Source: a virus
DNA: 64,000 bases
Virus record (IMG/VR): IMGVR_UViG_3300032307_000652
Location: 30,877 to 94,876 of that record
Reading direction: 5' to 3' (one strand)
Shown piece after piece: positions 46,676-64,000 of the stretch. Both the position numbers and the translations under genes were made by a program. The notes under the pieces were generated by a model, which did not search any database, had not been told where the DNA came from, and saw only the letters and a program-made list of their open reading frames with translations. Numbering within the stretch: position 1 is the first letter of the stretch; every line of letters starts with the position of its first letter.

Positions 46676-49641
46676 TGGCTAATTACACTTGTCCACCACA
46701 AAGACCATCAGGTTCAGGAACATTTTCAAATAACCTTGTCGGTTTACAAATAACCGATGGTGGTGGTTTAACGCAAGGTAATTTTACATTCACAAGTGTT
46801 GTAACTGAAAAAACTAATAGAAACTTTTCGGTTGGGGTATTTTCAGAACCAATATCATTAGAAACTCTTGGTTTTCAAAATACAATACAAGCGAAGTCTA
46901 TTTTTGATAAAAATTTTAAATTATACCCAAATTTTGATGAAACAGATATCACAAATTTTGTTGGTTATGGTTCTTTATCAAAAAGATTTGAGTCTGCGAT
47001 TACAAATATTATAAATTATTTTCCGGCATCTATTGATGTATCTAAATACCGACCAAATTTTACAACAGGTGCGACCGCAACAGGAATAACATACAATGTA
47101 AATGAAAATGAAACAAAACTAATTATTCCATTAGAAACTGTTCGAAATCCCTTTTCAGTTAATTATACTACAACTTCAACACAAACAATTGAGAGTTTAG
47201 AATTTAGTGTTTCAAAGTATAGGGACATGTCTAAAACATTTTTAAGTTATGTTTTAGTTTTAAATTCGAATTATTATCCTCTAACATTTATGGACCCAAG
47301 TACGTCTATAAGTGCTGGAACATTAACAGTTTATGTTCAGGGTAATCCTTTTTCAGGTTTATCAACGTATAATGATTTCTTTTTAATAAGACCAAATGAT
47401 ACAATTGTTAATGAAGTTTTTAATTTAGAATTAGGTGAGGTTGAAGAAATTTTATTGAATAGAATGGTTAAACCTATCTATACTTATGTTGCGACTGTCC
47501 CATCAATTTCTGATTCAGGATTAATTTATAATTCAACACAGACAGTTACTTTTCCATTAGATGGTCCTTGGAACTTAGATATTAGAACAAACGCATTTGT
47601 TAGTTATATCGAAAGTTTACAATTATTAGGTTTAGATTTTGACAATTATAGGACAAATATTATATCTAGATTTTATACAACAAACGCATTTAAAGATTTT
47701 GATACATCAGACCAAAAGGTTGACAAAGTATTAAAGATATATGGAAGAAGTTTTGATGAAACAAAAAAATATGCGGACGCAATTCAACATGTTACCTCTG
47801 TAAATTATAATATTGGTAATGATATTCATTCAGGACTTCTTACAAATTTTGCCGAGACTTTAGGATGGAGAACAAACATATCACCGATAGCTGATTCTGC
47901 TTTTTTAGAATCGGTTTATGGGACTACTGAAAACGCTTTTCCTGCGTATTCTACAAGTCAGACTATGTTGGACTTAAATTACCAATACTATAGAAATTTA
48001 ATATTAAATTCGGCATATTTGTTTAAATCTAAAGGAACAAGAAAGGCGATTGAATTCCTTTTAAATTTTATTGGAACTCCACAGGCTTTACTTGAATTTA
48101 ATGAAAATGTTTATTTGGTTGATTCCAAAGTAAACATGGATAGATTTAATCAATTATATAATAGTATTTCAGGTGGAACTTACACACCACAATTCCCAGC
48201 ATTGGACTCAACAAATGTATACGGGTTTTTAGGTAATACATATACTGGTTACACCACCCAACAAGTTGTTGAAGAGGTAACCACAACTAGAAATGATTAT
48301 CCTGTTGATGATGAAGGATATCCAACCAAACCAACATATAGTAATGATTATTTCTTTCAAAAAGGTGAGGGTTGGATACAATCAACGCCACAACATAGAA
48401 GTCCACAAATTGTTTCTGCTAATACAAATACATTTACAGGACAAAATCTTAGTATACAAACAAGTTTAGAACCTTTTACTTACGGTGAAAAATATTTAGA
48501 AAGGTTTAGAGATTTTCCGTTTATGGAACTTGGATTTTCAATTAAAAAAGAAAATGACAATAAGAAAAGTTGGTATGACCAAACAAGTGATTTACGAAAA
48601 AACACGGACAACTTATTTGATGCTTATTATACCGTTAGTGATGATAGATATGTTTTAAACGTTAAGAATACTGATATATTTTTAAATCCTGCTCAAGCGT
48701 TGGCTTATGATGTTTGGTACATGTCTAATACACAAAATTACCCAATACCATTTACAGGGTTATCTTCACCATATCCACAAACAGGTGGTACGGATTGGAC
48801 CTTTATTAATCCTCAACCACAAATAGAGAACTTCTTCGAGTTTTATAAAACGTTTTGGATGAATATGATTAATGTTAGAAATAGACAAATTTCATCTGAT
48901 GGTAAAACAAGTGGATACCCAACCTTACAATCTTTATTTTGGAAATACCTAACAATGTACCAAGATGTTGGAATACAAAATAATAATTTCACATACCAAA
49001 ATATGATAAACTATATTAATGGTTTAGGTTCATTTTGGATTAATTTGATAGAACAATTTGTACCAGCGACTACTATATGGAATACAGGGACAAAATTTGA
49101 AAATTCTATTTTTCATAGACAAAAGTTTATTTATAGAATGCAGAAAGGATGTCAGATTGTTTTACAAGAAATTGTTGGACCAGTATCAACAGGAACTATC
49201 AGTACTAACAATTGTAATAATGTAACATTCCCACTTCCAATACCGACAATAAATGATTTAGGTTCGGCGGTTAATAATAATTCTGAACAATTGGCGATTC
49301 AGGAAGGATTTTTAAATGGATATACCACAGTGTCCGCATTATATGGGTTTGAATTTACCATAAGTAATTTCAATGGAACAAATTCATATACATTTACTTA
49401 CAACGATTCCGCTTATTATTATACCCCTAATTTATTACCAACTCAAGCACAATGGACTAACATTATAAATCAAGGTATATTGTATTTTGCTAGTTCAGGG
49501 CAACTAAATGATGTGGGAATTCAAATTATTCTTGATTCAAATGATAATGTTATTAACATAGTAACACTATCGTGTGAATTCAGTGATTGGGAAATATCAG
49601 ATTTCTTAATATTAACGCAAGTATCAATTCAAGGACCATAA
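46675..49641 (+). CDS. Baseplate wedge protein (T4 gp7 / P2 gpI-like domain)
   Basis: LLTNFAETLGW...AYLFKSKGTRKAIEFLL; EQFVPA near the C-terminus. Confidence 0.65.
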   Translation: MANYTCPPQRPSGSGTFSNNLVGLQITDGGGLTQGNFTFTSVVTEKTNRNFSVGVFSEPISLETLGFQNTIQAKSIFDKNFKLYPNFDETDITNFVGYGSLSKRFESAITNIINYFPASIDVSKYRPNFTTGATATGITYNVNENETKLIIPLETVRNPFSVNYTTTSTQTIESLEFSVSKYRDMSKTFLSYVLVLNSNYYPLTFMDPSTSISAGTLTVYVQGNPFSGLSTYNDFFLIRPNDTIVNEVFNLELGEVEEILLNRMVKPIYTYVATVPSISDSGLIYNSTQTVTFPLDGPWNLDIRTNAFVSYIESLQLLGLDFDNYRTNIISRFYTTNAFKDFDTSDQKVDKVLKIYGRSFDETKKYADAIQHVTSVNYNIGNDIHSGLLTNFAETLGWRTNISPIADSAFLESVYGTTENAFPAYSTSQTMLDLNYQYYRNLILNSAYLFKSKGTRKAIEFLLNFIGTPQALLEFNENVYLVDSKVNMDRFNQLYNSISGGTYTPQFPALDSTNVYGFLGNTYTGYTTQQVVEEVTTTRNDYPVDDEGYPTKPTYSNDYFFQKGEGWIQSTPQHRSPQIVSANTNTFTGQNLSIQTSLEPFTYGEKYLERFRDFPFMELGFSIKKENDNKKSWYDQTSDLRKNTDNLFDAYYTVSDDRYVLNVKNTDIFLNPAQALAYDVWYMSNTQNYPIPFTGLSSPYPQTGGTDWTFINPQPQIENFFEFYKTFWMNMINVRNRQISSDGKTSGYPTLQSLFWKYLTMYQDVGIQNNNFTYQNMINYINGLGSFWINLIEQFVPATTIWNTGTKFENSIFHRQKFIYRMQKGCQIVLQEIVGPVSTGTISTNNCNNVTFPLPIPTINDLGSAVNNNSEQLAIQEGFLNGYTTVSALYGFEFTISNFNGTNSYTFTYNDSAYYYTPNLLPTQAQWTNIINQGILYFASSGQLNDVGIQIILDSNDNVINIVTLSCEFSDWEISDFLILTQVSIQGP

Positions 49642-51803
49642 TGAGTTACAGTATTACACTTACAGGAGATTGTTCTAACAATAGTAATGGTGCGGTTACA
49701 ATCCAATTTTATACCACCCCACCAACTATTATTAGTTGGACTGACAATAAATTACCTACTCAGACATTTACAGGTGATAGTATCACATATGGTGGGTTAA
49801 GTGCTGACACATATTCTTTTTCGTTCACATCGTCAACGGTTCCGGTAAATAGAATTTATGGGCCGGTAAGTTTTACAGTTTTGTCATCGACAACTGCCAA
49901 TATTACTACAGGGTATCAGTCAAGTTGTTCTTCAAACAACGGTTATTTAACTGTTGATGTTAATTTAGATATTTTTGATACTGAATTATATCCGATACCC
50001 GTTAATATTGATTTGTATAAAGATTATGTATTTTACGAAACAATAAGTGGTAGTAGTAGTCAAACGTCTTTTTTCAATTTAGGGGAAGGGATGTATTACG
50101 CTAATGTTTCAGGAAATGGTTTTTGTGATTGTGAGACTGAATCAGTTGTTATACACCCAAATACGGAGTCTTTAGATTTTGATTTTTATGTTGTTAATAA
50201 CCCTGCTTGTTCAGGTGTTGACGGTAAGATATACGTTACAGGTATAACTGGTACACCTCCATATACATACATTTGGTCACAGAATGTTGGATATACTGGT
50301 GCTACCACATTAGTTACAGGTGTAACACAAGGAACTTATACTTTAACTATTATAGATGGTGCGGGATGTGAATTATCAAAAACTGCGGCAGTTGGTTCGG
50401 CACCATTTATTGGATTAATTAGTTATGAAGTTACACAACCGACATGTTTTACATCTGATGGGGTTTTGGATATTTATTTGTCAGGTGGAACAGGACCTTA
50501 TTTTTATTTATTAAGTAATGGTGATTCTGTTACCTCGTATAGTTCTTCAGTTTCTTTTTCAGGGTTAAGTGCTGGTTTATATAGTTTAAGTGTTACTGAT
50601 GTTGCTCTTTGTACTTTTACATCATTCTTTACATTATCAACACCTAAAGTTTTTACATTTATATCTGCGGATGTTGTTAATTCACAATGTCAATATAACG
50701 GTGGTTCAATTGATGTCACTCTTTTAGGTGGAACTCCACCATATTATTATACTTTAGATAATAATAGTGGAACAACTAATAATGTTTCAAGTTTAATTAC
50801 AACAAATACTTTTTCAGATTTATCATCAGGAACTTATACTCTTACAATATCTGACTCAAGTAGTGCGTGTACTTACTCACAAAATTATACAGTTCTTAAT
50901 GAAACTTCGTTTAATTTTTCATTAAGTGCCCGAAGTAATTATTGTACTTATAACAGTGGGGCAATTCAAGTTGATATAACACCAAATACTACTGCTGATA
51001 CATTCTATACTTATTCTATTTCAAGCGGATTTAGTTCCGCTCCGACAACAGCAACAACATACGTATTTAACAATTTACCACCTGACACATATGATATAAC
51101 AATTTCAGATTCTACAGGATGTACTCAAAATGGTTCAGTGGTAGTTGATTATTTTGCTCCTTATAATTTGGTTCTTTATGGAACTGATTGTGGGACAGGT
51201 AGTGGGGGAACAATAAGTGCGATGATTAATGAAACGGATGGTCCATTTGATTTGACATGGAGTGATAATGTTAATGGTCAGACAGGGGTTTATATTACAG
51301 GTTTAACTGCTGGAACTTATTCTTTGGCGGTTAGTGGAGTGAATAATTGTGAGACAACAAAATACTTTACAATTAGTTGTAATCCTCTGAGAACGGCTAG
51401 TTCAACTTATTCCTATTCAATGGGAACTAAGTCTTATATACCATCTTCATTCTTAAATTTCTCAAATATGTTATCAAAAGGATATTTGAGTTTAACTAAC
51501 GGACACACTGCTTGTAAATTAAATTATGCTAGATTCTTCTGCGATGTTGAATTAAATAATATAACTTATTCTGGTTCATTTTATACCTCTAAAACACTTA
51601 CAAGTGTTCCTACATTAAGTGCGTTTACAAATGGTATAGGTTATTTATTTGATACAATTCCTGATTTAAAATCATATGAGATTAACCTTGATACTAACAC
51701 AATAAATGTTGAATCAGATGTTGTTGGTGGTGTTGAAGTTTATAAGGATGAAGTATTAACAATTACTGTAAGAATAGTTTATAAAATTTCATGTCTAACA
51801 TAA
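49641..51803 (+). CDS. SprB-repeat-like Ig-domain adhesin/fibre protein
   Basis: Repeated P.C....G.I....GGTPPYxY...GL.AG.Y.LTVTD..GC units; start moved to ATG 49641 (TAATG overlap). Confidence 0.7.
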   Translation: MSYSITLTGDCSNNSNGAVTIQFYTTPPTIISWTDNKLPTQTFTGDSITYGGLSADTYSFSFTSSTVPVNRIYGPVSFTVLSSTTANITTGYQSSCSSNNGYLTVDVNLDIFDTELYPIPVNIDLYKDYVFYETISGSSSQTSFFNLGEGMYYANVSGNGFCDCETESVVIHPNTESLDFDFYVVNNPACSGVDGKIYVTGITGTPPYTYIWSQNVGYTGATTLVTGVTQGTYTLTIIDGAGCELSKTAAVGSAPFIGLISYEVTQPTCFTSDGVLDIYLSGGTGPYFYLLSNGDSVTSYSSSVSFSGLSAGLYSLSVTDVALCTFTSFFTLSTPKVFTFISADVVNSQCQYNGGSIDVTLLGGTPPYYYTLDNNSGTTNNVSSLITTNTFSDLSSGTYTLTISDSSSACTYSQNYTVLNETSFNFSLSARSNYCTYNSGAIQVDITPNTTADTFYTYSISSGFSSAPTTATTYVFNNLPPDTYDITISDSTGCTQNGSVVVDYFAPYNLVLYGTDCGTGSGGTISAMINETDGPFDLTWSDNVNGQTGVYITGLTAGTYSLAVSGVNNCETTKYFTISCNPLRTASSTYSYSMGTKSYIPSSFLNFSNMLSKGYLSLTNGHTACKLNYARFFCDVELNNITYSGSFYTSKTLTSVPTLSAFTNGIGYLFDTIPDLKSYEINLDTNTINVESDVVGGVEVYKDEVLTITVRIVYKISCLT

Positions 51804-51827
51804 TCTAACAAAAACTATTTATGTTAG

Positions 51828-52832
51828 ATGAGTTTAGTAACAATTAACAATTTATCGGGTATTCCTCCTTACCAAGTTTCTGTCTGTGATATCTTTCAGT
51901 TCTCTTGTGTTACGGTAACAACAATTCACGATTATATTCCTCCAGCATATTCTTTTTATTTACCAAGTGGTTTTAATAAAGCTCCAAAAGTATTAATTAA
52001 GATTGTCGATTCTACGGGATGTATTTTTACAAGTGAGTATGAATGTTTAACACCAACTCCAACACCAAGTATTACACCAAGTATTACTCCTACAACATCT
52101 TTAACTCCTTCAATAACCCCAACACCAAGTATTACACCATCGTTTACACCAACCCCAAGTATTACGCCATCTATAACCCCGACCCCAAGTATTACTCCGT
52201 CAATTACCCCTACTAATACAGTTACACCAACACCGACAGTTACTCCAACCCTTACACAAACTCCCGAAGTTGGAAGATATGCTTATTTATTTATTGAACC
52301 TTATTCTGGTTCATCATCTATTGGAAGTTATATGAATTCTATGGGTTCATCATTCTATGGATTTACAAATGCTACAAGACCAAGTACTTCAGCATCTACG
52401 TTCCAAACAGATATGCAAAACTATGTTAATTTCTCAGGATGGTCTACAGGTTTATTCCCACAAGTAATAAGACAAACGATACCTCAAACAACGGGAGGAC
52501 TTGATAGTTATGGTAATCCAAGAATTGCATATAATTTCTTAACAACACTTGTTCCTGAAAATTATACTCAAAGTAAGGCTTGGTACACTTGGATAATACC
52601 GACTAATTTAACAAATAACCAATATCAAATTGAGATTGATTTAGGAATTGTTAATCCAAATGTCTTTACAAGTGTAAAGATGGAACCAACAATTTATGCT
52701 AATACATTTATTTATACAGGTAGTACTATTGCAAGAACCACCTATAGGGTTTACACAACATACCCATCAAATACATTTGAATTGGATAACACTTATGACC
52801 TTTATTTTAGAGGAAGTAAGGTTGATATATAA
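51828..52832 (+). CDS. Virion-region protein with a mucin-like Thr-Pro-Ser linker
   Basis: About 70 aa of ([12 protein letters not shown])n; TATTTATG motif at 51816-51823. Confidence 0.65.
52050..52265 (+). repeat. Degenerate coding repeat ([12 protein letters not shown])n
   Basis: Repeated ccaagtattac units. Confidence 0.85.
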
Positions 52833-52841
52833 TTATAGTAA

Positions 52842-53993
52842 ATGAGTTTCCCATATAAAAATCCGATATCGTCTATCCAATTAAATGGAACACAAACTGT
52901 ACCAAGAAACAATACGTATGGTACTACTTTCAGTGTTAACAATACGGGTGGTTATATGGAGGTTTTCAGTTTATCTGACCTTTATTATACAATACCATCA
53001 GGTACAACTGGAAGTATTGAATATTCGGGTAATACCATTCCTATTGAGTTTACAAAAGGAACGGGAGCCGCTTGGTCTCCTGATGTAATTACTTTGGCTT
53101 CTGATAATATTTCATCAGGTAGAAGACGACTTGGTATGTTAGCTTATGTTTATGAGGTTGACCAAGTTTATCAATATCATATTAATGATTACGAGACGTT
53201 ATTTAATGCTGCGACTGCTAGTACGGGATGTGCTCAGGTATCTGATTTTGGAACAACGATAAATAATAAAACTGCTGCGGGTCAGTCGTTTATTAATTCT
53301 TGGACTGCTAACACTATTGAAGATGTTAGTGGGGCGACATATAGTACTGCGGTATGGAGAAAGTTTACAACAGGAACTGGAGGAGGTTCAGGATTTACGT
53401 CAGTTAGAATAAATAATATCAGTCAATTTACATCATCACCATATAGCTATATTAATTTTAGTGGTGTTAATGTTAATATATCATCAGTTGGAAATAATAC
53501 GATTGTATTATCAGCAAATACTGGTGGTGGTTCTTTTAGTGGTGGATTAGAGTATTTTGTGTCCGCATCAACACCTACAGGAACAATTGTAAGTGGAGAT
53601 AGGTGGTTCAATACAAACACAGGTGTTGAATTAGTATGGATTGATGATGGTGATTCACAGCAATGGATTCAACCATTCTCAGTACCAGGGCCTTTATCAC
53701 CTGATGTGGGATATTATACGACAACAGGAATTACAACAGGACAAACTTTAACTTGGGATAAAACATATTGGGGCATAAGTGGTAATAGTAATGTTGATTT
53801 GGTATTACCGTCAGTGGTTGGTAAAGAGGGTTACTATTTAATAATAAAAGATGAAGAGGGGATTTGTGGTACTTATAGAATAAGAATAACACCTTCATCA
53901 GGAACAATTGATAATAATAATTACGTTGATATGAACATAAACTATATGTCCTTAACTTGTATTGTTAGGGACGGAAATTGGTATTTAATATGA
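52842..53993 (+). CDS. Tail fibre-like protein
   Basis: RRRLGMLAYV, GDRWFNTNTG...QQW; C-terminal LVLP...LIIKDE.G....I.P..GTID...WYLI fibre-type module. Confidence 0.6.
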   Translation: MSFPYKNPISSIQLNGTQTVPRNNTYGTTFSVNNTGGYMEVFSLSDLYYTIPSGTTGSIEYSGNTIPIEFTKGTGAAWSPDVITLASDNISSGRRRLGMLAYVYEVDQVYQYHINDYETLFNAATASTGCAQVSDFGTTINNKTAAGQSFINSWTANTIEDVSGATYSTAVWRKFTTGTGGGSGFTSVRINNISQFTSSPYSYINFSGVNVNISSVGNNTIVLSANTGGGSFSGGLEYFVSASTPTGTIVSGDRWFNTNTGVELVWIDDGDSQQWIQPFSVPGPLSPDVGYYTTTGITTGQTLTWDKTYWGISGNSNVDLVLPSVVGKEGYYLIIKDEEGICGTYRIRITPSSGTIDNNNYVDMNINYMSLTCIVRDGNWYLI

Positions 53994-55216
53994 GTTTTAT
54001 ATATAATAATGCGGTAAAATATTCTGATAGTCCAAATATTGATGCGTTTGGTAGATTGAGAGTTGCGGCAGTAACTAATCTATTGGATATTAAACATGTT
54101 TACGACAAAAATCCATTACAAGTTAATGAAGTAACCGCAGGAACTGCAACATCTATTTTTAGTCAGGAATATGCCAGAGTTAGAATGTCAACTTCAGCAA
54201 ATAATGATTTGGTAATTAGGCAATCAAAAACACACCCAATATATCAACCTGGTAAGAGTCAGTTATTTGAGGGAAGCTTTTCAAATTTTCAATTGGAGAC
54301 AAATGTAATAAAAAGAGTGGGATGTTTTACTACAACAACCGCATCAACTTATAATTCAGTTTTTGACGGGTTCTTCTTGGAGAGCAACGGGGTATCAAAT
54401 ACAATAAGTTTCCAACTATGGAGGTCAGGCACAACAATATTTAGCGCATCAACCACAACTTGGGAAACAAATGAGTTTAACCCTTCAAATTTTAATTGGT
54501 CTAACTCTCAATTAATGTTAGTTGATTATCAATGGTTAGGAGTTGGAAGAATGAGATTTGGATTTAATTTATCAGGACAAACAATTTATTTTACCGAACA
54601 TAATTGCTCAAATAATGATAGTTCGGTTTATATGTCATCACCAAACCAGCCTATAAGATATGAGATAAGACAAGTTGGAGCAGGTTCGGGTAGTTTTGAT
54701 ATGATATGTAGTCAGGTTTCTACTGAAGGTGCTTTAAATGGTTTATATAGTACTGTTGGTATTGCCCATTCCTCACAAATTACTCTTAATACTCCTGCAA
54801 CACCTAACGGAACAAAGTACCCATACATTGGGTTTAGATTAAGACCAGGATATGGTTCCGTAGTTTCCGAATTGGTAAGTTCAAATATTGTTGGTGTAAC
54901 TAACGATATATTTTTAATTACCGTTGAGTTTAACCCGACTCTATCCTCAACTCCAACATGGTCAGGTACGACAAATTCTCCGTTTGAATATTCTTTACAG
55001 GACGGAACATTAACAGTATCTAATTCAGGTTATATATTAAATTCAATCATCGCCGATTTAAGTACGTCAACAGCAATTGATTTCGGTACAAGTGATAATC
55101 AAATAAGAGTTGGTACAAATGTAAATGGGACAAGAGATGAAATGTGGATTTGTATAACACCATTAACCGCAGACCCTAAATTAAGGGGAGCAATTAATTT
55201 ATTATATTATTTATAA
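53990..55216 (+). CDS. Beta-sandwich (lectin-like) virion protein
   Basis: DAFGRLRV, YQPGKS, DYQWLGVGRMRFG; ATGA overlap supports start 53990. Confidence 0.55.
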   Translation: MSFIYNNAVKYSDSPNIDAFGRLRVAAVTNLLDIKHVYDKNPLQVNEVTAGTATSIFSQEYARVRMSTSANNDLVIRQSKTHPIYQPGKSQLFEGSFSNFQLETNVIKRVGCFTTTTASTYNSVFDGFFLESNGVSNTISFQLWRSGTTIFSASTTTWETNEFNPSNFNWSNSQLMLVDYQWLGVGRMRFGFNLSGQTIYFTEHNCSNNDSSVYMSSPNQPIRYEIRQVGAGSGSFDMICSQVSTEGALNGLYSTVGIAHSSQITLNTPATPNGTKYPYIGFRLRPGYGSVVSELVSSNIVGVTNDIFLITVEFNPTLSSTPTWSGTTNSPFEYSLQDGTLTVSNSGYILNSIIADLSTSTAIDFGTSDNQIRVGTNVNGTRDEMWICITPLTADPKLRGAINLLYYL

Positions 55217-56775
55217 TGCCAATTAATTTTCCAAATAGTCCATCACCAAATCAACTTTACACCTATGACACTAAAACATGGGAGTGGAATGGTATATATT
55301 GGGAAGTATATTCTGCTCTAACAAGTTACATAACAAGTGCTTACACTGTTGGTGATGGTGTTTCGGACATATCAGGTGTTACAGGAGGAAATATTGCGTT
55401 AAAAAGTTTCAGTGGTGTTAATATAACAATTATTGATACTGGTAGTAAACTTATTTTTAGTGGATATTCAATTACATCAGGTAGTTCAGGAACATCGGGT
55501 TCAAGCGGGTCATCAGGTTTAAGTGGAAGTAGTGGAACATCTGGTTCATCAGGTAGTTCAGGCTCTAGTGGAAGCTCAGGTTCTTCAGGTATATCAGGTA
55601 GTACAGGTTCGAGAGGAACTTCCGGAACTAGCGGAACGTCAGGTTCAAGTGGTTCTAGTGGTACATCGGGTAGTGGAGGGTCTTCAGGAAGTTCAGGTAC
55701 ATCAGGTAGTAGTGGTTCATCAGGAACAAGTGGTTTAGATGGGATAAGTGGGACATCTGGTTCATCAGGGTCAAGTGGTAGTACAGGTTCAAGAGGAACT
55801 AGCGGAACATCAGGTTCAAGTGGTTCTTCAGGAACTAGTGGAAGTTCAGGAACATCAGGTTCATCGGGTAGTTCAGGTTCTGCTGGAACATCGGGAACAG
55901 GATTTACTACAATTACAAGTCCGGGTAGTAATAGAGTATTAACATCTGATGGTACGGCAAACGCTGCGGTAGCTCAGGCTAGGATGACTTTTGATGGGAT
56001 TAAATTAGCGGTAACAGGTGATACGACTATTATTGGTTCCACGACTATTACTGGTAATATAAGTACTACAGGTGTAACCTCTCTTGGTAACGGAACATTT
56101 ACAAAGGCGGGGTCAGCTACTGGTGATGTTATCCTTGATAATAATAGTACAGATACTCCGGGTGTTTTGTTTTATTATGCTAATAATTCAAACTATGGTA
56201 TTGATAGTTTTAATGGGTCATTTGATGTTCTAAGTGGTCAGTTATTACGTTTCACAAATAAATTAAATGAGACTGGCGGAGCTGTAAAGATGGCTATAGA
56301 TACCACAGGTAATGTGGTATTTACCGGATTTATAAAGGCTAATGCGTGGAGAGCAGGTCAGGTAATTAACGATATTATTTTGAGTAATACTGAAGTGACT
56401 ATTAGTACAACAACTATAGCAACTAGTACTTCGGATACTGATTTCTTAACTTACAGTTATACACCATTAAGTTCTACAAGTTATTTAGTAATACATTATC
56501 ACTTAGCATCTTTTGATTTTACTTCTGGTACAGGTAATGATTCATACATATCTAGAATAAAGGTTGATGGTGGTGAAATAACCTATTCAGTACAAAGCAC
56601 GGTTAATGGATTTCGTACAGGTGTTTTATTTCCATTAACGGGTAGATACACTAACTCTAATACTACCGCAAAATCGATAGTAGTTGCATGTCGTAGAAGT
56701 TCTGCGGATGATAATATCACAATAGTAAATTCGGCTACTTCAATGTGGTTGAGAATAACAGAAGTAGCGAGATAA
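55216..56775 (+). CDS. Fibre protein with a Gly-Ser-Ser/Gly-Thr-Ser collagen-periodicity shaft
   Basis: INFPNSP...WEWNG..W N-terminus; about 46 Gly-X-Y triplets; C-terminal beta-sandwich ending ITEVAR. Confidence 0.7.
55477..55902 (+). repeat. (GSS/GTS)n coding repeat, 9-nt period, codon-diversified
   Basis: Gly at every third residue over about 140 aa. Confidence 0.9.
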
Positions 56776-58436
56776 TGCCAATACCACCAAATAAAATAAA
56801 ATACTCAACGTCCTTTCATCCTAATACGATTAAAGTTAAGGATTGGGTTTTAGGTATTAATGAAGGCGCAGAATACGGGCCAACAAGTGTTACAGGATTT
56901 TGGAATTCTATTATACCACCATCAGGTGGTTATACCATGTATGGAAACAAAGCAGTTGCTGGACCGTCCATAGTTGTTGCTCAAAACGACTCAGAACTTA
57001 TTGGGTTTACTCAAGGATTTGCAGGTCAAACATTTAGTACGGCTAACGAAGCGTTAGGATGGTACACAGGACAAACAGGGCTTATTTGTGTTAACCTTGA
57101 TTATCCTGATATTGTAACTGACGGATTAACATTATTACTTGACGCTGGTTATGTTTCATCATACCCAAGAAGTGGTTCACGATGGGATGATTTAAGTTTT
57201 AGTGGTAATAACGGAACATTAATTAATACTCCGACATTTAGTTCAAGTAATAACGGATACCTTACATTTAACGGAAGTAATCAATATGTTAATGTTGCAG
57301 GTACTCCTGTCGGAATAACGGCATATACAAAAAACATTTGGTTTTACCTAAACTCAACTGCTGATAACAACTTATTAAGCAGTGATACGGGTGGACACTT
57401 TATGTATTTTGCTGGTACAAATAAATTATATTGTGGACATTCAAATTGGGGTAATTATGGTGTTTATCCCTCAACAACAAGTTTTAGTAATGGTGTTTGG
57501 TATAACGCATGTCTTACTTTTGACACAACAAATGGTTTCATTCTATATGTTAATGGTGTTCAGGATAGTACATACACCGCTCAAAAAACACCTGTAAGTG
57601 GTAATGGGTCTACAAGGATTGGTTCTTATGGTGTAGGTGGTAATTTATTGAATGGTAGAGTTTCAGTTGCAATGACGTACAATAGAGTATTAAGTTCTAC
57701 AGAGGTATTAAAAAACTTTAACTCGTTTTCATCAAGATTTATTTCACCATCACCAACACCGACAACAACAATTACTCCTACTAGAACACCAACTGTAACA
57801 CCAACTATCACACCAACAAACACTCAAACTCCGACAAATACTCAAACACCTACACCATCAATTACACCAACTAGAACTGTAACACCTACACCATCAATTA
57901 CACCAACAAATACAATTACTCCTACACCGTCAATTACACCAACTAGAACTGTAACACCTACCATATCAATAACCCCTACTAATACTCCAACACCAACAAC
58001 TACCCCAATACCTGTTACAGGTGTTACATTCTCACAAGCGTTTACAGGTGGTACTGCTCCATCGATAGCTATAGAAACTGCTTGGAACACATTCAGAAGC
58101 CGATTAACTGGTACCACATACACTCAATTTGTATGGTCAAGTACTAATGGTAATAGTTTAACTGTAAGTCATCCCACATTAGTACAATCATTAGCAACTT
58201 CGTTAAGAACTGCAACAGTAACAGGTATTACTATTAACAGTGTGGTATGGAGAGTTGGAACAGGATGTGGCACTCCTAAAATCGGTGGTGTTGCGGTAGA
58301 GTTTTCTAACATTGGAAGTTGTAGTGTATCAAGTACATACGCTTTAAGACCAATGATTAATAATGCTAACTGGGGTGGAACTAATGAATATACAGTTAAC
58401 GCGCCGTCACAAACAATAACTTTAACATTCTCATAA
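56775..58436 (+). CDS. LamG/concanavalin-like domain fibre protein with a Thr-Pro stalk
   Basis: [44 protein letters not shown]; about 90-aa TP repeat; start moved to 56775 (TAATG overlap). Confidence 0.75.
57744..58013 (+). repeat. Thr-Pro coding repeat, including three tandem 36-nt units (57849-57956)
   Basis: cctacaccatcaattacaccaactagaactgtaaca; units 1 and 3 differ at one base. Confidence 0.88.
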
Positions 58437-58438
58437 TT

Positions 58439-58573
58439 ATGTATTATATATTAGATTTAGAACAAACCCCACCTGAAAAACTATCAAACGTTGAATTTGA
58501 AAATAAGTTTGATGCTTGTGAATGGATTGAACAAAATGGGGGTATTGTAAAATATACTATAACAGAAATATAA
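58439..58573 (+). CDS. Small 44-aa protein, possible fibre chaperone
   Basis: Not in the ORF track. MYYILDLEQTPPEKLSNVEFENKFDACEWIEQNGGIVKYTITEI fills the gap between two fibre genes. Confidence 0.6.
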   Translation: MYYILDLEQTPPEKLSNVEFENKFDACEWIEQNGGIVKYTITEI

Positions 58574-58574
58574 A

Positions 58575-59381
58575 ATGGCAACATCAAGACCCTTCGCATA
58601 TAACACAGGTTCAACAATATCAGGGACAGAACAAGTCGGAAGTATTGCTATTGGCACACCAACAAGTGGGTTTACATCCACAGGTTTAAGATGGTGGAAT
58701 GGGCCTGATGAAGATTTGGGTTATGTAATTGCTCATACTGTTCCATCAGGAACACAACCAAATCCTGTTGGAGTTCCTGCTTATATTGGTTTTTGGAGAA
58801 CATCAGGTAAGACAGATAATAACTTTATTAGTTTGTCTCAGTACGTATCAAGTTTTACGGGAACACCACAAACATTCGCAAGTGCTTCAGCCGCTAAAAC
58901 ATGGTTAAACTCGGCGGGATATTGGACATCTTATGTTAGTTCATACACATATTATAGATGGCAAATAACCGCAACAAAAACAGCACCACCTGATGGTAAC
59001 TGTACGCAGGCTGCTGAGTTTGTATTCCAAGTAGGAGGTGTCGACCAAAGTATGACGGGTGTTACTGTTACAAATCCTGGTGGTACTAGTCCGGCAAGTG
59101 AAGAGCCGCCAAAATTAGTTGATGGTAATTTGGCTACAAAGGGTTTAGATTTATTGTATGTCTCAAACGGAAATGTTACTAATTTTATATTTCAGTTCTC
59201 AACTGCTAAAACATTTAATGGATATAGATGGGCTACCGCAAATGATGCTGAAAGTAGAGACCCTAAATCATGGACTATTGCGGGTAGTAATGACGGAACA
59301 ACATGGACTACATTACATACGGTTACTAACTTTACAGCTACTGTTGCTCGACAAACTTATCAAACCGCACAAACTTATTAA
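58575..59381 (+). CDS. Virion protein with an F5/8-type C (discoidin/CBM32-like) domain
   Basis: YRWATANDAESRDPKSWTIAGSNDGTTWTTL. Confidence 0.7.
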   Translation: MATSRPFAYNTGSTISGTEQVGSIAIGTPTSGFTSTGLRWWNGPDEDLGYVIAHTVPSGTQPNPVGVPAYIGFWRTSGKTDNNFISLSQYVSSFTGTPQTFASASAAKTWLNSAGYWTSYVSSYTYYRWQITATKTAPPDGNCTQAAEFVFQVGGVDQSMTGVTVTNPGGTSPASEEPPKLVDGNLATKGLDLLYVSNGNVTNFIFQFSTAKTFNGYRWATANDAESRDPKSWTIAGSNDGTTWTTLHTVTNFTATVARQTYQTAQTY

Positions 59382-59434
59382 TTTATTTCTTTAATTTTTA
59401 TTTAAAATTAATACTTTTTGTATAAAACGTTTAC

Positions 59435-60679
59435 ATGAAAATTTTTATACAAGTTGCGTCTTATAGAGACCCACAGTTAATCCCAACTATAAAATCTGCA
59501 TTAGAAAATGCTAAACGACCTGAAAACTTAGTTTTCGGTATTGCTCGTCAGTATCATCGCGATGATAATTTTGATAATTTAGATGAATATAGAGATGATG
59601 AAAGATTTAGAATAATTGATATTCCTTATTATGAATCTAGAGGAGCATGTTGGGCGAGAAATCAAATACAACAATTGTACGATAAAGAAAATTACACCCT
59701 CCAAATTGACTCACATATGAGGTTTGCCCAAGATTGGGATGATGAGATGATTAGGATGATTAAACAACTTCAAAAGAAAGGATATAAGAAACCTTTATTA
59801 ACAGGATATGTTTCATCATTTGACCCTGACAATGACCCAAGTTTACGTGTGAATGAACCATGGAGAATGGCGTTTGATAGATTTATTCCTGAAGGTGCTG
59901 TTTTCTTTTTACCTGAGACAATTCCTGGTTGGCAAAATCTAACTGAACCTGTTACCGCAAGATTTTATTCCGCTCACTTCTGTTTTACTCTTGGTAAGTT
60001 CGCTAAAGAAGTTCAACACGACCCTGAGTTTTATTTTCACGGAGAAGAGATTTCAATTGCCGCAAGAGCTTACACTCACGGATATGATTTATTCCACCCA
60101 CACAAAGTTTTGATTTGGCATGAATATACTCGCAAAGGTAGAACCAAACAATGGGACGACGATAAACAATGGGTGGATAAGAATAATTTTGCTCACAAGA
60201 AAAATCGTTCTCTATTTGGTATGGATGGTGAGGAAAATATGAATCACGGAAAATATGGTTTTGGTAAAGTTAGAAGTTTAAGAGATTATGAAAAATATTC
60301 AGGACTACTCTTTTCAAAGAGAGCCGTTCAACAATATACATTAGATAAAGGTTATCCACCTAATCCAAATAACTTCAATTCAGAAGAAGAATGGTTAAAA
60401 TCATTTACGTCAGTATTCAAACATTGTATTGATATTGGATTTACTCAAGTTCCTGAAAAGGATTATGACTTTTGGGTTGTTGCGTTCCACAATGAAATGG
60501 ATGAGACCATTTACAGACAAGACGCTGATAAAGGTGAGGTTGATAGAATGTTAAGAGACCCTGATGGTTATTGTAAAGTTTGGAGAGAGTTCTTAACTGA
60601 TTCAAAACCTAAATATTGGGTGGTTTGGCCTCACTCAGAATCTAAAGGATGGTGTGATAGAATAACAGGAAATTTATAA
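59435..60679 (+). CDS. GT60-like polypeptide alpha-GlcNAc transferase (Skp1-GlcNAcT-like)
   Basis: IFIQVASYRDP, LVFGI, GACWAR, LQIDSHMRF..DWD, FHGEEI..AARAYTHGYDLFHP. Confidence 0.8.
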   Translation: MKIFIQVASYRDPQLIPTIKSALENAKRPENLVFGIARQYHRDDNFDNLDEYRDDERFRIIDIPYYESRGACWARNQIQQLYDKENYTLQIDSHMRFAQDWDDEMIRMIKQLQKKGYKKPLLTGYVSSFDPDNDPSLRVNEPWRMAFDRFIPEGAVFFLPETIPGWQNLTEPVTARFYSAHFCFTLGKFAKEVQHDPEFYFHGEEISIAARAYTHGYDLFHPHKVLIWHEYTRKGRTKQWDDDKQWVDKNNFAHKKNRSLFGMDGEENMNHGKYGFGKVRSLRDYEKYSGLLFSKRAVQQYTLDKGYPPNPNNFNSEEEWLKSFTSVFKHCIDIGFTQVPEKDYDFWVVAFHNEMDETIYRQDADKGEVDRMLRDPDGYCKVWREFLTDSKPKYWVVWPHSESKGWCDRITGNL

Positions 60680-60682
60680 TAT

Positions 60683-61393
60683 ATGAAATTTACATTTGCT
60701 ACTTTTTGTTTTGGTGAAAGATATTATAACCAAGTTAATAGATTTATTGGTGATATTATAGAATCAGATTATAAAACAAATTTGGTTGTTATCACCGATG
60801 ACCCAAGTAAGATTAACAATCAAGAATTCGTCCATGTTTTTAACATTAATGATTTTAATCCGAATTATTTGGAATATGCTAAAAACTACTACGATTTTGA
60901 TTTTTCAGTTAAGAGATATTCTTTAAGAGCAGCTTTAAGTATTGGTTTTACTAAAATCATTTTAGTTGATTGTGATATGAGAGTTAACCCATCTTTCTTT
61001 AATGAAGAAAAGATTTTGGGGGCGTTTGATGAAAATTGTTTATCAGGGCCAGTAACTTATAATTTTCACGAACAAGTTCATACTAATAGTGAATTAGGTA
61101 GACGATTACTTGAGTATGAAAAGTATTTCAATCATGAGGTTGATAAAGATAAGTTGGAGGTTATGCCTGAAGATTGTATCCAATACTTGAGTATTGATGA
61201 AGATAAGTTTAATAGTTTTTTAGATACTTGGGACAAATGTATTGAATATAAAAAAGAAAAAGGTTTAAGAAACATACCTGCTGGTAACATTGATGAGATG
61301 TGTTTTTCAGCATTATCTAATGGAATAGAAATAAAAAATAATGCTTATAAGGCATCAAACATAGTATATGCAGAACATGACAAATGGTACTAA
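60683..61393 (+). CDS. Putative GT-A fold glycosyltransferase
   Basis: VVITDD, K.Y.L, IILVDCD (DxD), late DE motif; GT cluster context. Confidence 0.55.
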   Translation: MKFTFATFCFGERYYNQVNRFIGDIIESDYKTNLVVITDDPSKINNQEFVHVFNINDFNPNYLEYAKNYYDFDFSVKRYSLRAALSIGFTKIILVDCDMRVNPSFFNEEKILGAFDENCLSGPVTYNFHEQVHTNSELGRRLLEYEKYFNHEVDKDKLEVMPEDCIQYLSIDEDKFNSFLDTWDKCIEYKKEKGLRNIPAGNIDEMCFSALSNGIEIKNNAYKASNIVYAEHDKWY

Positions 61394-62231
61394 AATAATT
61401 TCAGCGATTTATGAACTAAAATATGTTGAAGGGATTAACAGTGAGAGATATAAAAATTTCCCATTATTAGTTGCAACAATTAAAAATATAATTTATCCTG
61501 AATATCATTACGTAATTTATACTGACCAAAATTCGTATGATAAATTTAATTTAAAGTATGAATTTAATTTCCCAAATGTTGAATTCAAATTTAAAGAATT
61601 AAATACATCTGAAACTTGTGAATTAATTGATAGAATTAGAACTCAAGAATTATTGGGTGGGATTAATTATGATAGAATTTATTGTGTTAACAATTACTTA
61701 GAAGTTGTTTTAAATAAACTTAAATTCTTAATTGATGAGTCACATGATTGTGAAAATATCTTTTGGATTGATGCTGGTTTGATTGGAACGTCTTGTCACG
61801 ACGGATGGAGAGATTATATGGCTCCATTAATTAATTCAAAAAACTTTTTGGACAAGGTGGTTGATAAGATAAAACAACACGGGTTTATTCATTTGAAAGG
61901 CAATTCAATTGTGATGAACTATGAAACAGTTTCTAAATTCAATCAACTATTTGGTGTTGAATTAAAGGTTGTTCCTGGATGTCTATTTGGTGGAACGTCA
62001 GAAAAAGTTAGACATATTTTAGACGGATATTTAGACATTTTTAATCAATATTTAACCACACATAACCAACTTATTAGTGAACAAGAAGTTCTCACGGCTA
62101 TCACAGGTAAACATTCTGATGAATGTCATGCTTTTGAGTTTGGAGATTGGTTAGACTTACAAAAAGCGTTTTTAAATATTTTAGACATTTATGATGAGAC
62201 AAAATATGTAAGGGAGAAATGTTATGTTTAG
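61368..62231 (+). CDS. HtrL/WlaTC-like putative glycosyltransferase
   Basis: IYTD, IFWIDAG, GCLFGG, SEQEVL; start could be 61377. Confidence 0.65.
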   Translation: MQNMTNGTKIISAIYELKYVEGINSERYKNFPLLVATIKNIIYPEYHYVIYTDQNSYDKFNLKYEFNFPNVEFKFKELNTSETCELIDRIRTQELLGGINYDRIYCVNNYLEVVLNKLKFLIDESHDCENIFWIDAGLIGTSCHDGWRDYMAPLINSKNFLDKVVDKIKQHGFIHLKGNSIVMNYETVSKFNQLFGVELKVVPGCLFGGTSEKVRHILDGYLDIFNQYLTTHNQLISEQEVLTAITGKHSDECHAFEFGDWLDLQKAFLNILDIYDETKYVREKCYV

Positions 62232-62787
62232 TCTTAACATTGTTTGTACTTCAATCGGGAGAGAAACTCTACCAAGATTAATTGAGTCATTCAAAGACCA
62301 ATTAGACACAACAGATATTTTTACAATAATATCAGATATTAATCACGACTTTGTTTCAGAAGTATTATCAAGGTATGAGTTTAAATTCAAAGTTAATCAC
62401 ATATTAAATCAAGGTGAAAGAAAGTGGAAATACGGACATCCATTAATTAATGAGAACATTAATTCATTGGAAGGTGATTTTATAATGTTTGCTGATGATG
62501 ATGATAGATACACTGAAGAAGCATTCAAAGTAATTAAAGAAACTGTTAAAGATAAAAATAAATTATACATATTCAAACACAATTGGTTAGGTGATATTAA
62601 TTGGAGATTAAAAGATTTCACAAGAGGTAATGTAGGTAAATGTATGGGAGTGATTCCAAATACACATAATTTACCGATGTTCCAAGAAGATGTTTTTGGA
62701 GATGTTATTTTTTATGAAGAGATAGGTCAAATGTTTGAAAGTGAATTTGTTGATTACATAATCTATAAAGTTAGACATACGGAATGA
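62224..62787 (+). CDS. GT2-like glycosyltransferase (short)
   Basis: IVCTSIGRETLPRLIES, IISD, GDFIMFADDDD. Confidence 0.65.
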   Translation: MFSLNIVCTSIGRETLPRLIESFKDQLDTTDIFTIISDINHDFVSEVLSRYEFKFKVNHILNQGERKWKYGHPLINENINSLEGDFIMFADDDDRYTEEAFKVIKETVKDKNKLYIFKHNWLGDINWRLKDFTRGNVGKCMGVIPNTHNLPMFQEDVFGDVIFYEEIGQMFESEFVDYIIYKVRHTE

Positions 62788-64000
62788 GTAATATTACATT
62801 AGTTACAGGATTGTGGAATATTGGTAGAGAAAATCTTGAAGAAGGTTGGTCTCGTTCTTTTTCACATTATTTAGAAAAATTTGAACAACTATTAAAGGTT
62901 GAGGAAAACTTAATAATTTTTGGTGAAAAAGAATTGGAGGAATTTGTTTGGGAAAGAAGAGAACAAAGTAATACCCAATTTATTTTAAGAGATAAGAGTT
63001 GGTTTGTTGAAAATGACTTTTATAATAAGATACAACAAATTAGAAATAACCCTGAATGGTATAATCAATCAGGGTGGTTAAAAGAATCGACACAAGGTAG
63101 ATTAGAAATGTATAATCCTCTTGTTATGTCTAAAATGTTTTTGTTAAACGACGCAAGAATTTTTGATAAGTTTAATTCTGAGTTTTTATTTTGGATTGAT
63201 GCTGGACTTACAAATACTGTTCACCCCGGATATTTTACACATGATAAGGTGTTAAATAATTTAAGTAAGTATATTGATAAGTTTACATTTGTTTGTTTTC
63301 CATACGACGCAAGTAATGAGATACACGGATTTTCATACCCAAAGATTAATGAATGGGCTGAATATGATGTGAAGAAAGTTGCTCGTGGTGGATTTTTTGG
63401 AGGGCCAAAAGAAACCATATCACAGATGAATGGTGAATATTATAACCTATTGAATGATACACTATCAAGTGGGTACATGGGAACTGAGGAATCAATATTT
63501 TCAATAATGGTTTATAAGTTAAAAGAATATATAAATTATTTTGAAATCGATTATAACGGTTTATTTGGAAAATTCTTCGAAGATTTAAAAGATGATGTTT
63601 TAGTTAAAAAGACAGAGTTTGTTAAAATTCAAAATGAATTAGATATTGATAAAGTTGCGTTGTATGTCATAACATTCAATTCACCAAAACAATTTGAAAC
63701 ACTAATTAAATCTATGATTGAATATGATAGGGATTTCTTAGACAAACCAAAGAAATTTTTATTGAATAATTCAACTGACCTGTCTACAACGGAAGAATAC
63801 TTAAGACTTTGTAAAGAATATGATTTTGAACATATCAAAAAAGATAATATAGGTATTACAGGTGGACGACAATGGACTGCGGAACACTTTGATGAAACAG
63901 GGTTGGACTATATGTTATTCTTTGAGGATGATATGTTTTTTTATTCACAAAAAAATGAAGTGTGTAGAAATGGGTTTAACAGATATGTGAGTAATCTATA
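62784..64000 (+). CDS. HtrL-like plus GT2-like two-domain glycosyltransferase (partial)
   Basis: Not in the ORF track (no stop inside the window). Manual translation: MSNITLVTGLWNIGR...YNPLVMSK...FWIDAG...RGGFFGG...GTEESIF, then VALYVITFNSP...NIGITGGR...YMLFFEDD. Confidence 0.75.
   Translation, partial: MSNITLVTGLWNIGRENLEEGWSRSFSHYLEKFEQLLKVEENLIIFGEKELEEFVWERREQSNTQFILRDKSWFVENDFYNKIQQIRNNPEWYNQSGWLKESTQGRLEMYNPLVMSKMFLLNDARIFDKFNSEFLFWIDAGLTNTVHPGYFTHDKVLNNLSKYIDKFTFVCFPYDASNEIHGFSYPKINEWAEYDVKKVARGGFFGGPKETISQMNGEYYNLLNDTLSSGYMGTEESIFSIMVYKLKEYINYFEIDYNGLFGKFFEDLKDDVLVKKTEFVKIQNELDIDKVALYVITFNSPKQFETLIKSMIEYDRDFLDKPKKFLLNNSTDLSTTEEYLRLCKEYDFEHIKKDNIGITGGRQWTAEHFDETGLDYMLFFEDDMFFYSQKNEVCRNGFNRYVSNL

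Follow-up and report, generated by a model that had tools for sequence, protein, structure and literature searches.

Enzymes of glycosyltransferase (GT) family GT60 (PF11397) are best known from protists, where they attach α-linked N-acetylglucosamine (GlcNAc) to protein hydroxyls. Gnt1 of Dictyostelium modifies a hydroxyproline of Skp1, and the pp-αGlcNAcT enzymes of Dictyostelium and Trypanosoma cruzi act on threonines of mucin-like repeats of the PTVT or otherwise Thr-rich type. To our knowledge, every characterised GT60 enzyme glycosylates proteins. The polypeptide N-acetylgalactosaminyltransferases (ppGalNAc-Ts) of family GT27, which initiate mucin-type O-glycosylation in animals and in Toxoplasma, carry a DxH…H metal site. 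Here we describe a block of five genes, led by a GT60 gene, at positions 59435–63998 of a 64,000-nucleotide (nt) stretch of viral DNA (hereafter the window), which forms the last 64 kb of the 94,876-bp IMG/VR viral contig IMGVR_UViG_3300032307_000652. We read the block, at roughly even odds, as a soluble cytoplasmic O-glycosylation cassette that acts on the phage's own Thr/Pro-linker proteins.

The lead enzyme of the block shares its Pfam family with the protist enzymes and conserves the DxH motif and a downstream His, and the Thr-Pro repeats of its candidate acceptors are similar to the protist substrates. It differs from them in being soluble and unanchored, in possessing an extra conserved C-terminal β-domain, and in that no prolyl hydroxylase partner was found. 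The GT27 enzymes are its best structural likeness and have the same type of metal site; however, neither sequence similarity to them nor a ricin-type lectin in Pfam is detectable in the phage enzyme, which is not a Golgi membrane protein. In its logic the cassette matches the serine-rich-repeat adhesin loci of Gram-positive bacteria, which encode a cytoplasmic O-GlcNAc initiator (GtfA/GtfB) and strain-variable extending enzymes together with their Ser/Thr-repeat substrate. There, the initiator is a GT4 enzyme with the GT-B fold and the product is exported by accessory Sec, whereas the phage products would stay cytoplasmic until lysis.

Glycosylated phage particles have so far been documented mainly for some mycobacteriophages, in which virion structural proteins reportedly receive glycans from glycosyltransferases of the phage (Freeman et al. 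2023, Cell Host Microbe, as summarised in PMC12619734). The window resembles that system in that its glycosyltransferase genes adjoin structural genes and that proteins of the phage itself are the proposed targets. The enzyme families are different (GT60 followed by a tandem GT-A enzyme in the window), and the glycans are proposed to sit on Thr/Pro linkers within fibre-like proteins instead of on capsid and tail-tube subunits at their C-termini. The cassette is also much larger, hypervariable and accompanied by a second island of ~20 kb. Giant viruses have likewise been described as glycosylating autonomously, one such enzyme being the collagen glucosyltransferase R699 of mimivirus (PMC9546862, PMC12279948). 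The points of likeness to these viruses and to human LH3 and COLGALT1 are a tandem GT-A fusion, a PLOD-type GT-domain family in relatives of the window phage, and virus-encoded nucleotide-sugar enzymes. The likeness to R699, LH3 and COLGALT1 lies in the tandem architecture, and for the single domains GT6 and GT2/GT13 enzymes are matches of equal quality. A search of the literature on phage GT60 enzymes, O-glycosylated tail fibres and collagen-like jumbo phages returned nothing describing this system, and relative to that literature the block would be a new form of phage or viral self-glycosylation.

Open reading frame (ORF) 59435 (59435–60679, on the plus strand, as are all window genes given below) bounds the cassette at its conserved 5′ end and encodes a predicted polypeptide α-N-acetylhexosamine (HexNAc) transferase of 414 amino acids (aa). 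The motifs that had led to its original prediction as a GT60-like gene are present (ASYRD at residue 8, QIDSH at 90 and GEE at 203), and the protein is a bona fide member of GT60/PF11397, matching the 'GlcNAc' model with an E-value of 2.4e-68 (score 231.6 bits, cut-off 21) in two stretches that cover model positions 2–44 and 95–349 of 352. The phage family phrog_24687, labelled 'glycosyltransferase', matches at E 6e-171. Residues D92, H94, E204, E205 and H229 are invariant in an alignment of 42 sequences with 36–90% identity. The spacing of D92-x-H94…H229 is one that we take to resemble the DxH…H Mn site of GalNAc-T2, and these three residues would act as metal ligands.

An AlphaFold2 (AF2) model of ORF 59435, with a predicted local distance difference test score (pLDDT) of 95.4, has a GT-A fold of the GT27 type. 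A catalytic domain (residues ~1–300) is followed by a conserved C-terminal domain (residues ~300–414) that is β-rich in the whole-protein model and has no Ricin_B_lectin match in Pfam. The best 29 structure matches in the PDB are all mucin-type ppGalNAc-Ts, with Z-scores of 19.2–22.6 and a root-mean-square deviation (r.m.s.d.) of ~3.5 Å over ~275 aligned residues of the catalytic unit, and the folds ranked next are generic GT2-like ones (Z ≤ 18). In sequence, the protein resembles no solved structure; phmmer and the 42-sequence profile found no GT27 chain in the PDB at E ≤ 1, and Glycos_transf_2 and Glyco_transf_7C, the Pfam families of the GT27 catalytic unit, do not match the protein. The sequence of ORF 59435 thus places it in GT60 and its fold resembles that of GT27, and the relation to GT27 that had been predicted for it stands as a structural one. 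PF11397 is absent from 14 model bacterial genomes, and by this measure GT60 is not a housekeeping enzyme. The family is large: metagenomes contain over 7,000 clusters when sequences are grouped at 90% identity, and clustering at 50% leaves 4,590 representatives, some with tandem GT60 domains; several proteins of 1,000–2,461 aa (P0123, P0124, P0126, P0163 and others) each contain two to five of them. None of the five cassette ORFs encodes a hydrophobic stretch that could cross a membrane.

To define the cassette we used the best 80 loci (74–99% identical) among 225 IMG/VR stretches that encode a GT60 relative. A homologue of the fusion enzyme that ends the block in the window lies downstream of GT60 in 78 of these 80 loci, and the same pair occurs in phage XacN1. 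The interval between the two holds one to eight genes (1.0–6.5 kb), and its 263 ORFs fall into 52 families. By Pfam, these include FkbM and other methyltransferases, glycosyltransferases of families GT10, GT11, GT25, GT2, GT34, GT7 and GT31, a PLOD-type GT domain (one family), carbamoyltransferase, DegT aminotransferase, nucleotidyltransferase, GNAT, epimerase and HAD proteins. GT60 itself is still 74–82% identical in phages whose fibre genes barely align. In GTDB genomes, an HtrL/GT-A gene lies within 3.5 kb of the GT60 homologue at 33 of 80 loci, high-GC chromosomes included. The retention of the pair in both sets marks a module with conserved ends, GT60 and the fusion, and an exchangeable, hypervariable run of glycan genes between them.

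In the window, GT60 is followed by four co-oriented, tightly packed ORFs. The original prediction of at least four further glycosyltransferase-like genes holds for the co-oriented run and for three of its members, an HtrL-like enzyme, a GT2-like enzyme and an HtrL+GT-A fusion, which are supported as glycosyltransferases. For the first gene, ORF 60683 (60683–61393), which encodes an orphan protein of 236 aa with an invariant D96-x-D98, this function is only a lead. No match was found in Pfam, PHROG, NCBIfam or PDB profiles, nor a profile match to the other cassette genes, and the best 120 of its 310 homologues have no Pfam domain. For want of such matches we rejected ORF 60683 as a recognisable glycosyltransferase; the only leads, to GT8, GT6 and Nucleotid_trans, came from a language-model atlas. 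ORF 61368 (61368–62231) is an HtrL-like glycosyltransferase (GT6-like retaining GT-A fold) that aligns with the HtrL domain of the fusion in hhalign (probability 94.4%, E 9e-8) and has no direct PF09612 match. ORF 62224 (62224–62787), a small protein with a DDDD motif at residues 91–94, is marginally GT2-like, with 23.2 bits for PF00535 against a cut-off of 23.3, a PglI-type match at E 1.7e-5 and a SpsA match at E 7e-4. A scan of positions 49000–64000 for promoters and terminators returned counts equal to those of shuffled controls and is thus uninformative on co-transcription.

The 3′ boundary is the fusion, ORF 62784 (62784–63998), which is cut at residue 405 by the end of the contig and has its full length of 556 aa in the 97%-identical relative L005. 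HtrL_YibB (PF09612) matches ORF 62784 at E 5e-13 (49.7 bits, cut-off 24.1), and the score for the NCBIfam YibB equivalog, 65.7, is far under the cut-off of 264.9. The AF2 model of the full-length protein (pLDDT 85.6) comprises two GT-A domains. For residues 1–268, the HtrL domain, the fold is similar to that of retaining GT6 enzymes, among them the blood-group A/B transferases and BoGT6a (Z ~13; r.m.s.d. 3.5 over ~196 aa), and residues 285–545 resemble inverting enzymes such as B4GALNT1, POMGnT1 and GnT-I (Z ~14), which makes the C-terminal half GT2/GT13-like. A whole-chain Foldseek search placed mimivirus R699, LH3, LARGE1 and COLGALT1 on top (E 2e-10 to 5e-8, TM-score ~0.25), a likeness that we read from the model as probably one of common architecture rather than of common substrate. 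The C-terminal domain also has two weak matches, one with TAGT that falls short of the cut-off (E 0.0027, in L005) and one with phrog_842 (E 3e-4), the β-glucosyl-hydroxymethylcytosine (HMC) α-glucosyltransferase family. Taken together, the enzyme assignments are solid.

The proteins encoded next to the cassette are candidates for its substrates. We evaluated the ORF directly upstream and the two ORFs directly downstream of the block in 56 distinct phage contexts. A Thr/Pro/Ser-linker protein is among these three in 49 of the 56, a count that is partly conserved synteny and not a set of independent events, since the flanking linker proteins are homologous to one another and form one large set. 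In the complete relative G002, the genome-wide rate is 5 Thr/Pro/Ser-tagged proteins among 339 ORFs. The downstream neighbour always starts with a conserved domain of ~120 aa, which either stands alone as a 122-aa ORF or runs on into a Thr/Pro/Ser linker, with a C-terminal domain that varies. Many ORFs directly upstream of GT60 start with a SprB-like domain, as found at the N-terminus of ORF 51828 in the window.

ORF 51828 (51828–52832) is one of two candidate acceptors in the fibre operon of the window. This modular fibre-like protein consists of the SprB-like domain (residues 1–73), an 84-aa linker (residues 66–149, nt 52023–52274) with 28 Thr, 11 Ser and 20 Pro, and a C-terminal domain. The other candidate, ORF 56745 (56745–58436), has a ConA-like domain (Laminin_G_3, PF13385, E 4e-16), a 108-aa Thr/Pro/Ser tract (nt 57714–58037) with 42 Thr and 23 Pro, and a C-terminal domain. 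These two tracts are the Thr-Pro-Ser stalks of the original prediction, and the 49 contexts accord with its idea that GT60 co-occurs with Thr/Pro-repeat genes. The Gly-Ser-Ser stalk, to which both ideas had been extended, is a collagen-type Gly-X-Y repeat and not a mucin-like tract. It belongs to ORF 55216 (55216–56775), a collagen-like tail fibre (Pfam Collagen, E 2.6e-19; many PHROG tail-fibre families) with 47 uninterrupted Gly-X-Y triplets (nt 55480–55902) and 67 Ser, 17 Thr, no Pro and no Lys. A collagen-like ORF lies within 10 kb of the block in 5 of the 56 contexts only, and G002 has none with at least six Gly-X-Y triplets despite carrying the same cassette. Collagen-like fibres are thus not supported as the defining acceptor of the block, and they may serve as additional targets. 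Collagen glycosyltransferases act on hydroxylysine, and glycosylation of that type was rejected on the composition of the 47-triplet tract and on the lack of a collagen-like ORF in G002.

The remaining genes of the operon encode further fibre proteins. ORF 52842 (52842–53993) has no Pfam family and shares its N-terminus with a giant collagen-like fibre of L005, ORF 53978 (53978–55216) is a fibre-module protein with no family found and a homologue elsewhere in G002, and ORF 58575 (58575–59381) is a fibre-tip-like protein with an F5/8 type C domain of the discoidin, sugar-binding type (PF00754, E 1.3e-6) and a match to the tail-protein family phrog_17517. A single ORF of 1370 aa in close relatives unites homologues of ORF 52842 and ORF 55216 and lacks ORF 53978 (window 52842–56775 compared with L005:3206-7318), which indicates modular shuffling of fibre genes. 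The giant fibre of L005 (L005:16654-21240) has more than 1529 aa and ~380 Gly-Ser/Thr triplets (Pfam Collagen, E 1.5e-165), and its N-terminus resembles ORF 52842.

The last fibre gene and GT60 are separated by 53 nt in the window (59382–59434), so that the block starts directly after the fibre operon as predicted, but this adjacency is not conserved. G002 carries the same three-gene cassette at 69–83% identity, and its gene order is second glycan island (minus strand), 716-aa protein, GT60 block, 134-aa ORF, linker protein and PolB. On the window contig, the second island, a 1303-aa protein and PolB are adjacent, and the GT60 block lies 60 kb off. The 1303-aa protein occupies the exact site of the block in G002, which suggests that the block was relocated or excised; this protein (G000:C1:22901-26812, equal to L086:2901-6809) corresponds to the 716-aa protein of G002 with a Thr/Pro/Ser extension. 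In the 99%-identical relative L005, the block is followed by a 122-aa ORF, a 410-aa linker protein and the collagen-like fibre of more than 1529 aa. These differences in synteny show the block and the downstream linker-protein genes differently placed in the window sublineage, inside the fibre module, and by gene order they probably moved ~60 kb as a unit. The 122-aa ORF and the 410-aa protein (L005:15050-16625) have paralogous N-terminal domains of ~120 aa and overlap by 26 nt. Their counterpart in other loci is a single ORF with N-domain, linker and variable C-domain, and the pair may reflect a split gene, a wrong start or a frameshift. Adjacency to structural genes is present in the window and its close relatives and absent in G002 and XacN1, in both of which DNA polymerase and a second glycan island adjoin the block; it is specific to the window sublineage and not lineage-wide.

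A second glycan island of ~20 kb lies upstream of the window (G000:C1:1-22850, composed of L085:1-20000 and L086:1-2850), with ~25 genes on the minus strand. It encodes GDP-mannose 4,6-dehydratase, epimerases, DegT, three GT2 enzymes, GT4, GT8, GT10, GT25, FkbM and other methyltransferases. Thirteen genes in its middle (contig positions 6171–15491) have no homologue in G002, and the island is a second variable cassette. Judged by its gene content, it would supply nucleotide-sugar enzymes (GDP-mannose dehydratase, DegT) and further glycosyltransferases.

On the reading that the block glycosylates the phage's own proteins, GT60 would add the first HexNAc, most likely α-GlcNAc from host UDP-GlcNAc, to Thr or Ser of the Thr-Pro-rich linkers of modular fibre- or appendage-like proteins, before or during their assembly. 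The variable middle genes would then extend or decorate the glycan, by means of the orphan DxD protein, the HtrL-like and the GT2-like enzyme in the window, and of fucosyl-, galactosyl-, methyl-, carbamoyl- and acetyltransferases in relatives. The conserved tandem GT-A enzyme, with its HtrL/GT6-like and GT2-like domains, would add two more sugars. Exposed linkers would thereby carry a glycan that varies from strain to strain and may stiffen them, protect them from proteases or alter adsorption. The original prediction of a phage that encodes its initiating enzyme, extending enzymes and acceptors is thus retained for the GT60 lead, the further soluble glycosyltransferases and the linker-protein flanks, and not supported for the collagen-like fibre as acceptor.

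Several observations weigh against this reading. The neighbours of the block in G002 and XacN1 are genes for DNA polymerase and replication and not fibre genes, and the sole Thr/Pro/Ser tag in the XacN1 neighbourhood is a weak one in the giant ORF325. Synteny among homologous flanking proteins accounts for part of the 49 contexts. GT60 homologues in GTDB genomes have mixed surroundings that show no consistent exopolysaccharide (EPS), lipopolysaccharide (LPS) or protein-substrate context, and adjacency to Thr/Pro/Ser proteins is not significant (7/147 compared with 16/559, p = 0.18). We know of no characterised bacterial or phage GT60 member. Protein glycosylation by the block and the virion location of the linker proteins are points that we infer, and the linker proteins were chosen as acceptors by gene neighbourhood. 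Finally, HtrL_YibB, GT10, GT11 and GT25 are typical of outer-core synthesis in LPS or lipooligosaccharide (LOS), for which no phage flippase is needed.

This last point leads to the main rival, remodelling of the host envelope, which we consider unlikely but which fares best among the alternatives. The soluble glycosyltransferases would act at the inner face of the host membrane on the lipid A-core (LOS or LPS outer core) or on another host glycoconjugate and so alter the surface of the infected cell, for example to bring about superinfection exclusion or to keep progeny from re-adsorbing to lysed cells. HtrL_YibB is by its name and its NCBIfam YibB match a family of LPS-core loci, and it is reportedly found in Acinetobacter LOS outer-core loci; GT10, GT11, GT25, GT2 and GT8, all found in the cassettes, are common in LOS and O-antigen synthesis, and the ancestral position of the block is beside replication genes. 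We searched five related records, one of them 100% complete, for WbaP/WecA-type transferases and the Wzx flippase (PF02397, PF00953, PF01943) and found none, with controls positive in 9–13 of the 14 model genomes. A polysaccharide pathway on a lipid carrier (undecaprenyl phosphate, Und-P) is therefore not supported, although host enzymes could still serve. Core extension, however, needs neither a phage flippase nor an initiating transferase, so these negative results leave envelope remodelling standing. What speaks against it is the lead enzyme, whose family is known for protein acceptors only, whose fold is specifically like that of the polypeptide GalNAc-Ts and whose Pfam family is missing from the 14 model bacteria, together with the consistent flanking of the block by Thr/Pro/Ser-linker proteins and its place inside the fibre module in the window sublineage.

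An alternative that we regard as improbable is that the GT60-led set modifies cytoplasmic proteins of the host or the phage as a take-over or regulatory device, comparable to protist Skp1 modification or to bacterial effector glycosyltransferases, with the fibre neighbourhood being incidental. The enzymes are indeed soluble, and Gnt1, a characterised GT60 enzyme, acts on a cytoplasmic regulator. The position near replication genes in G002 and XacN1, and the occurrence of the GT60 and HtrL/GT-A pair in bacterial chromosomes among unrelated metabolic genes, would also suit such a role. Prolyl 4-hydroxylase (PF13640) was not found in the five related records, however, which makes an acceptor of the Skp1 hydroxyproline type unlikely. 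A hypervariable cassette with methyl and carbamoyl decoration is better suited to an exposed surface glycan than to a regulatory mark, and Thr/Pro/Ser-linker proteins are enriched around the block.

Clusters of phage glycosyltransferases are known that decorate DNA with a variety of glycans (Pyle et al. 2024, as summarised in PMC12619734). For the window lineage, the sole thymidylate synthase (TS)-family gene of the relatives is a true ThyA (263 bits to a solved TS), and no hydroxymethylase was found in the relatives; a search for Tet_JBP gave no match, but its positive control matched nowhere either and the window contig covers only 32% of the genome. That the glycosyltransferases build glycans on modified bases against restriction is accordingly very improbable, given that the TS homologue is a true ThyA, that the weak TAGT and phrog_842 matches of the fusion, its only recommendation besides the known clusters, are sub-threshold and fit generic GT-A similarity, that the lead enzyme is GT60/GT27-like, and that the fucosyl-, galactosyl-, methyl- and carbamoyltransferases of the cassettes are atypical of DNA glycans.

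The source contig has a CheckV completeness of 32%, which at 94,876 bp implies a genome of ~300 kb, and among the relatives, records rated 100% complete are up to 293,850 bp long. Genes for a single-stranded DNA-binding protein (SSB), a UvsX-like recombinase, a DnaB-type helicase, a class I ribonucleotide reductase (RNR) and a baseplate J-like wedge protein, along with a long run of large structural ORFs, are found in the window, and the phage is a jumbo myophage. Near-identical DNA occurs in sequencing runs from lake-water and freshwater metagenomes. Complete relatives encode full-length DnaK (HSP70; G002:C1:228880-230661 and G003:C1:268472-270250), a fibre protein contains SprB repeats, a motif of the Bacteroidota type, and the closest matches among bacterial bins are contigs of Saprospiraceae metagenome-assembled genomes (MAGs). 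The 'moraphages' described from freshwater have genomes of 200–307 kb, Bacteroidota hosts, DnaK, and a core genome with four glycosyltransferase orthogroups (PMC12619734), and the freshwater source, DnaK, SprB repeats and Saprospiraceae matches fit this lineage. Four of the Saprospiraceae-binned contigs (L102-L104 and L107; GC content 0.33–0.39, one of 230 kb) encode GT60 at 67–71% identity together with the fusion. They are either mis-binned jumbo-phage contigs or a pointer to the host. Among isolated phages, megablast with the region found no match, and tblastn found matches in XacN1, Xoo-sp13, CM1 and RAS14 only, at 44–47%.

More broadly, and with somewhat less than even confidence, we propose that freshwater jumbo phages and many bacteria may possess a self-contained cytoplasmic mucin-type O-glycosylation in which GT60 initiates, an exchangeable cassette extends and a conserved tandem GT-A enzyme finishes. 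In the phages, virion appendages would carry strain-specific glycans on their Thr/Pro linkers, which would parallel O-antigen diversity on the viral side, and the enzymes would form a prokaryotic and viral reservoir of the eukaryotic mucin-type initiator family. If this is true, an abundant group of lake phages devotes roughly one gene in ten to sugar chemistry, using enzymes different from those of the mycobacteriophages, to build a glycan that differs between near-identical strains and sits on the flexible linkers of the appendages for host recognition. Adsorption, protease resistance and the sticking of particles to organic matter would then be affected. ORF 59435 combined with ORF 51828 or ORF 56745 would provide a simple test system, and bacterial and viral GT60 enzymes would gain their first proposed function.

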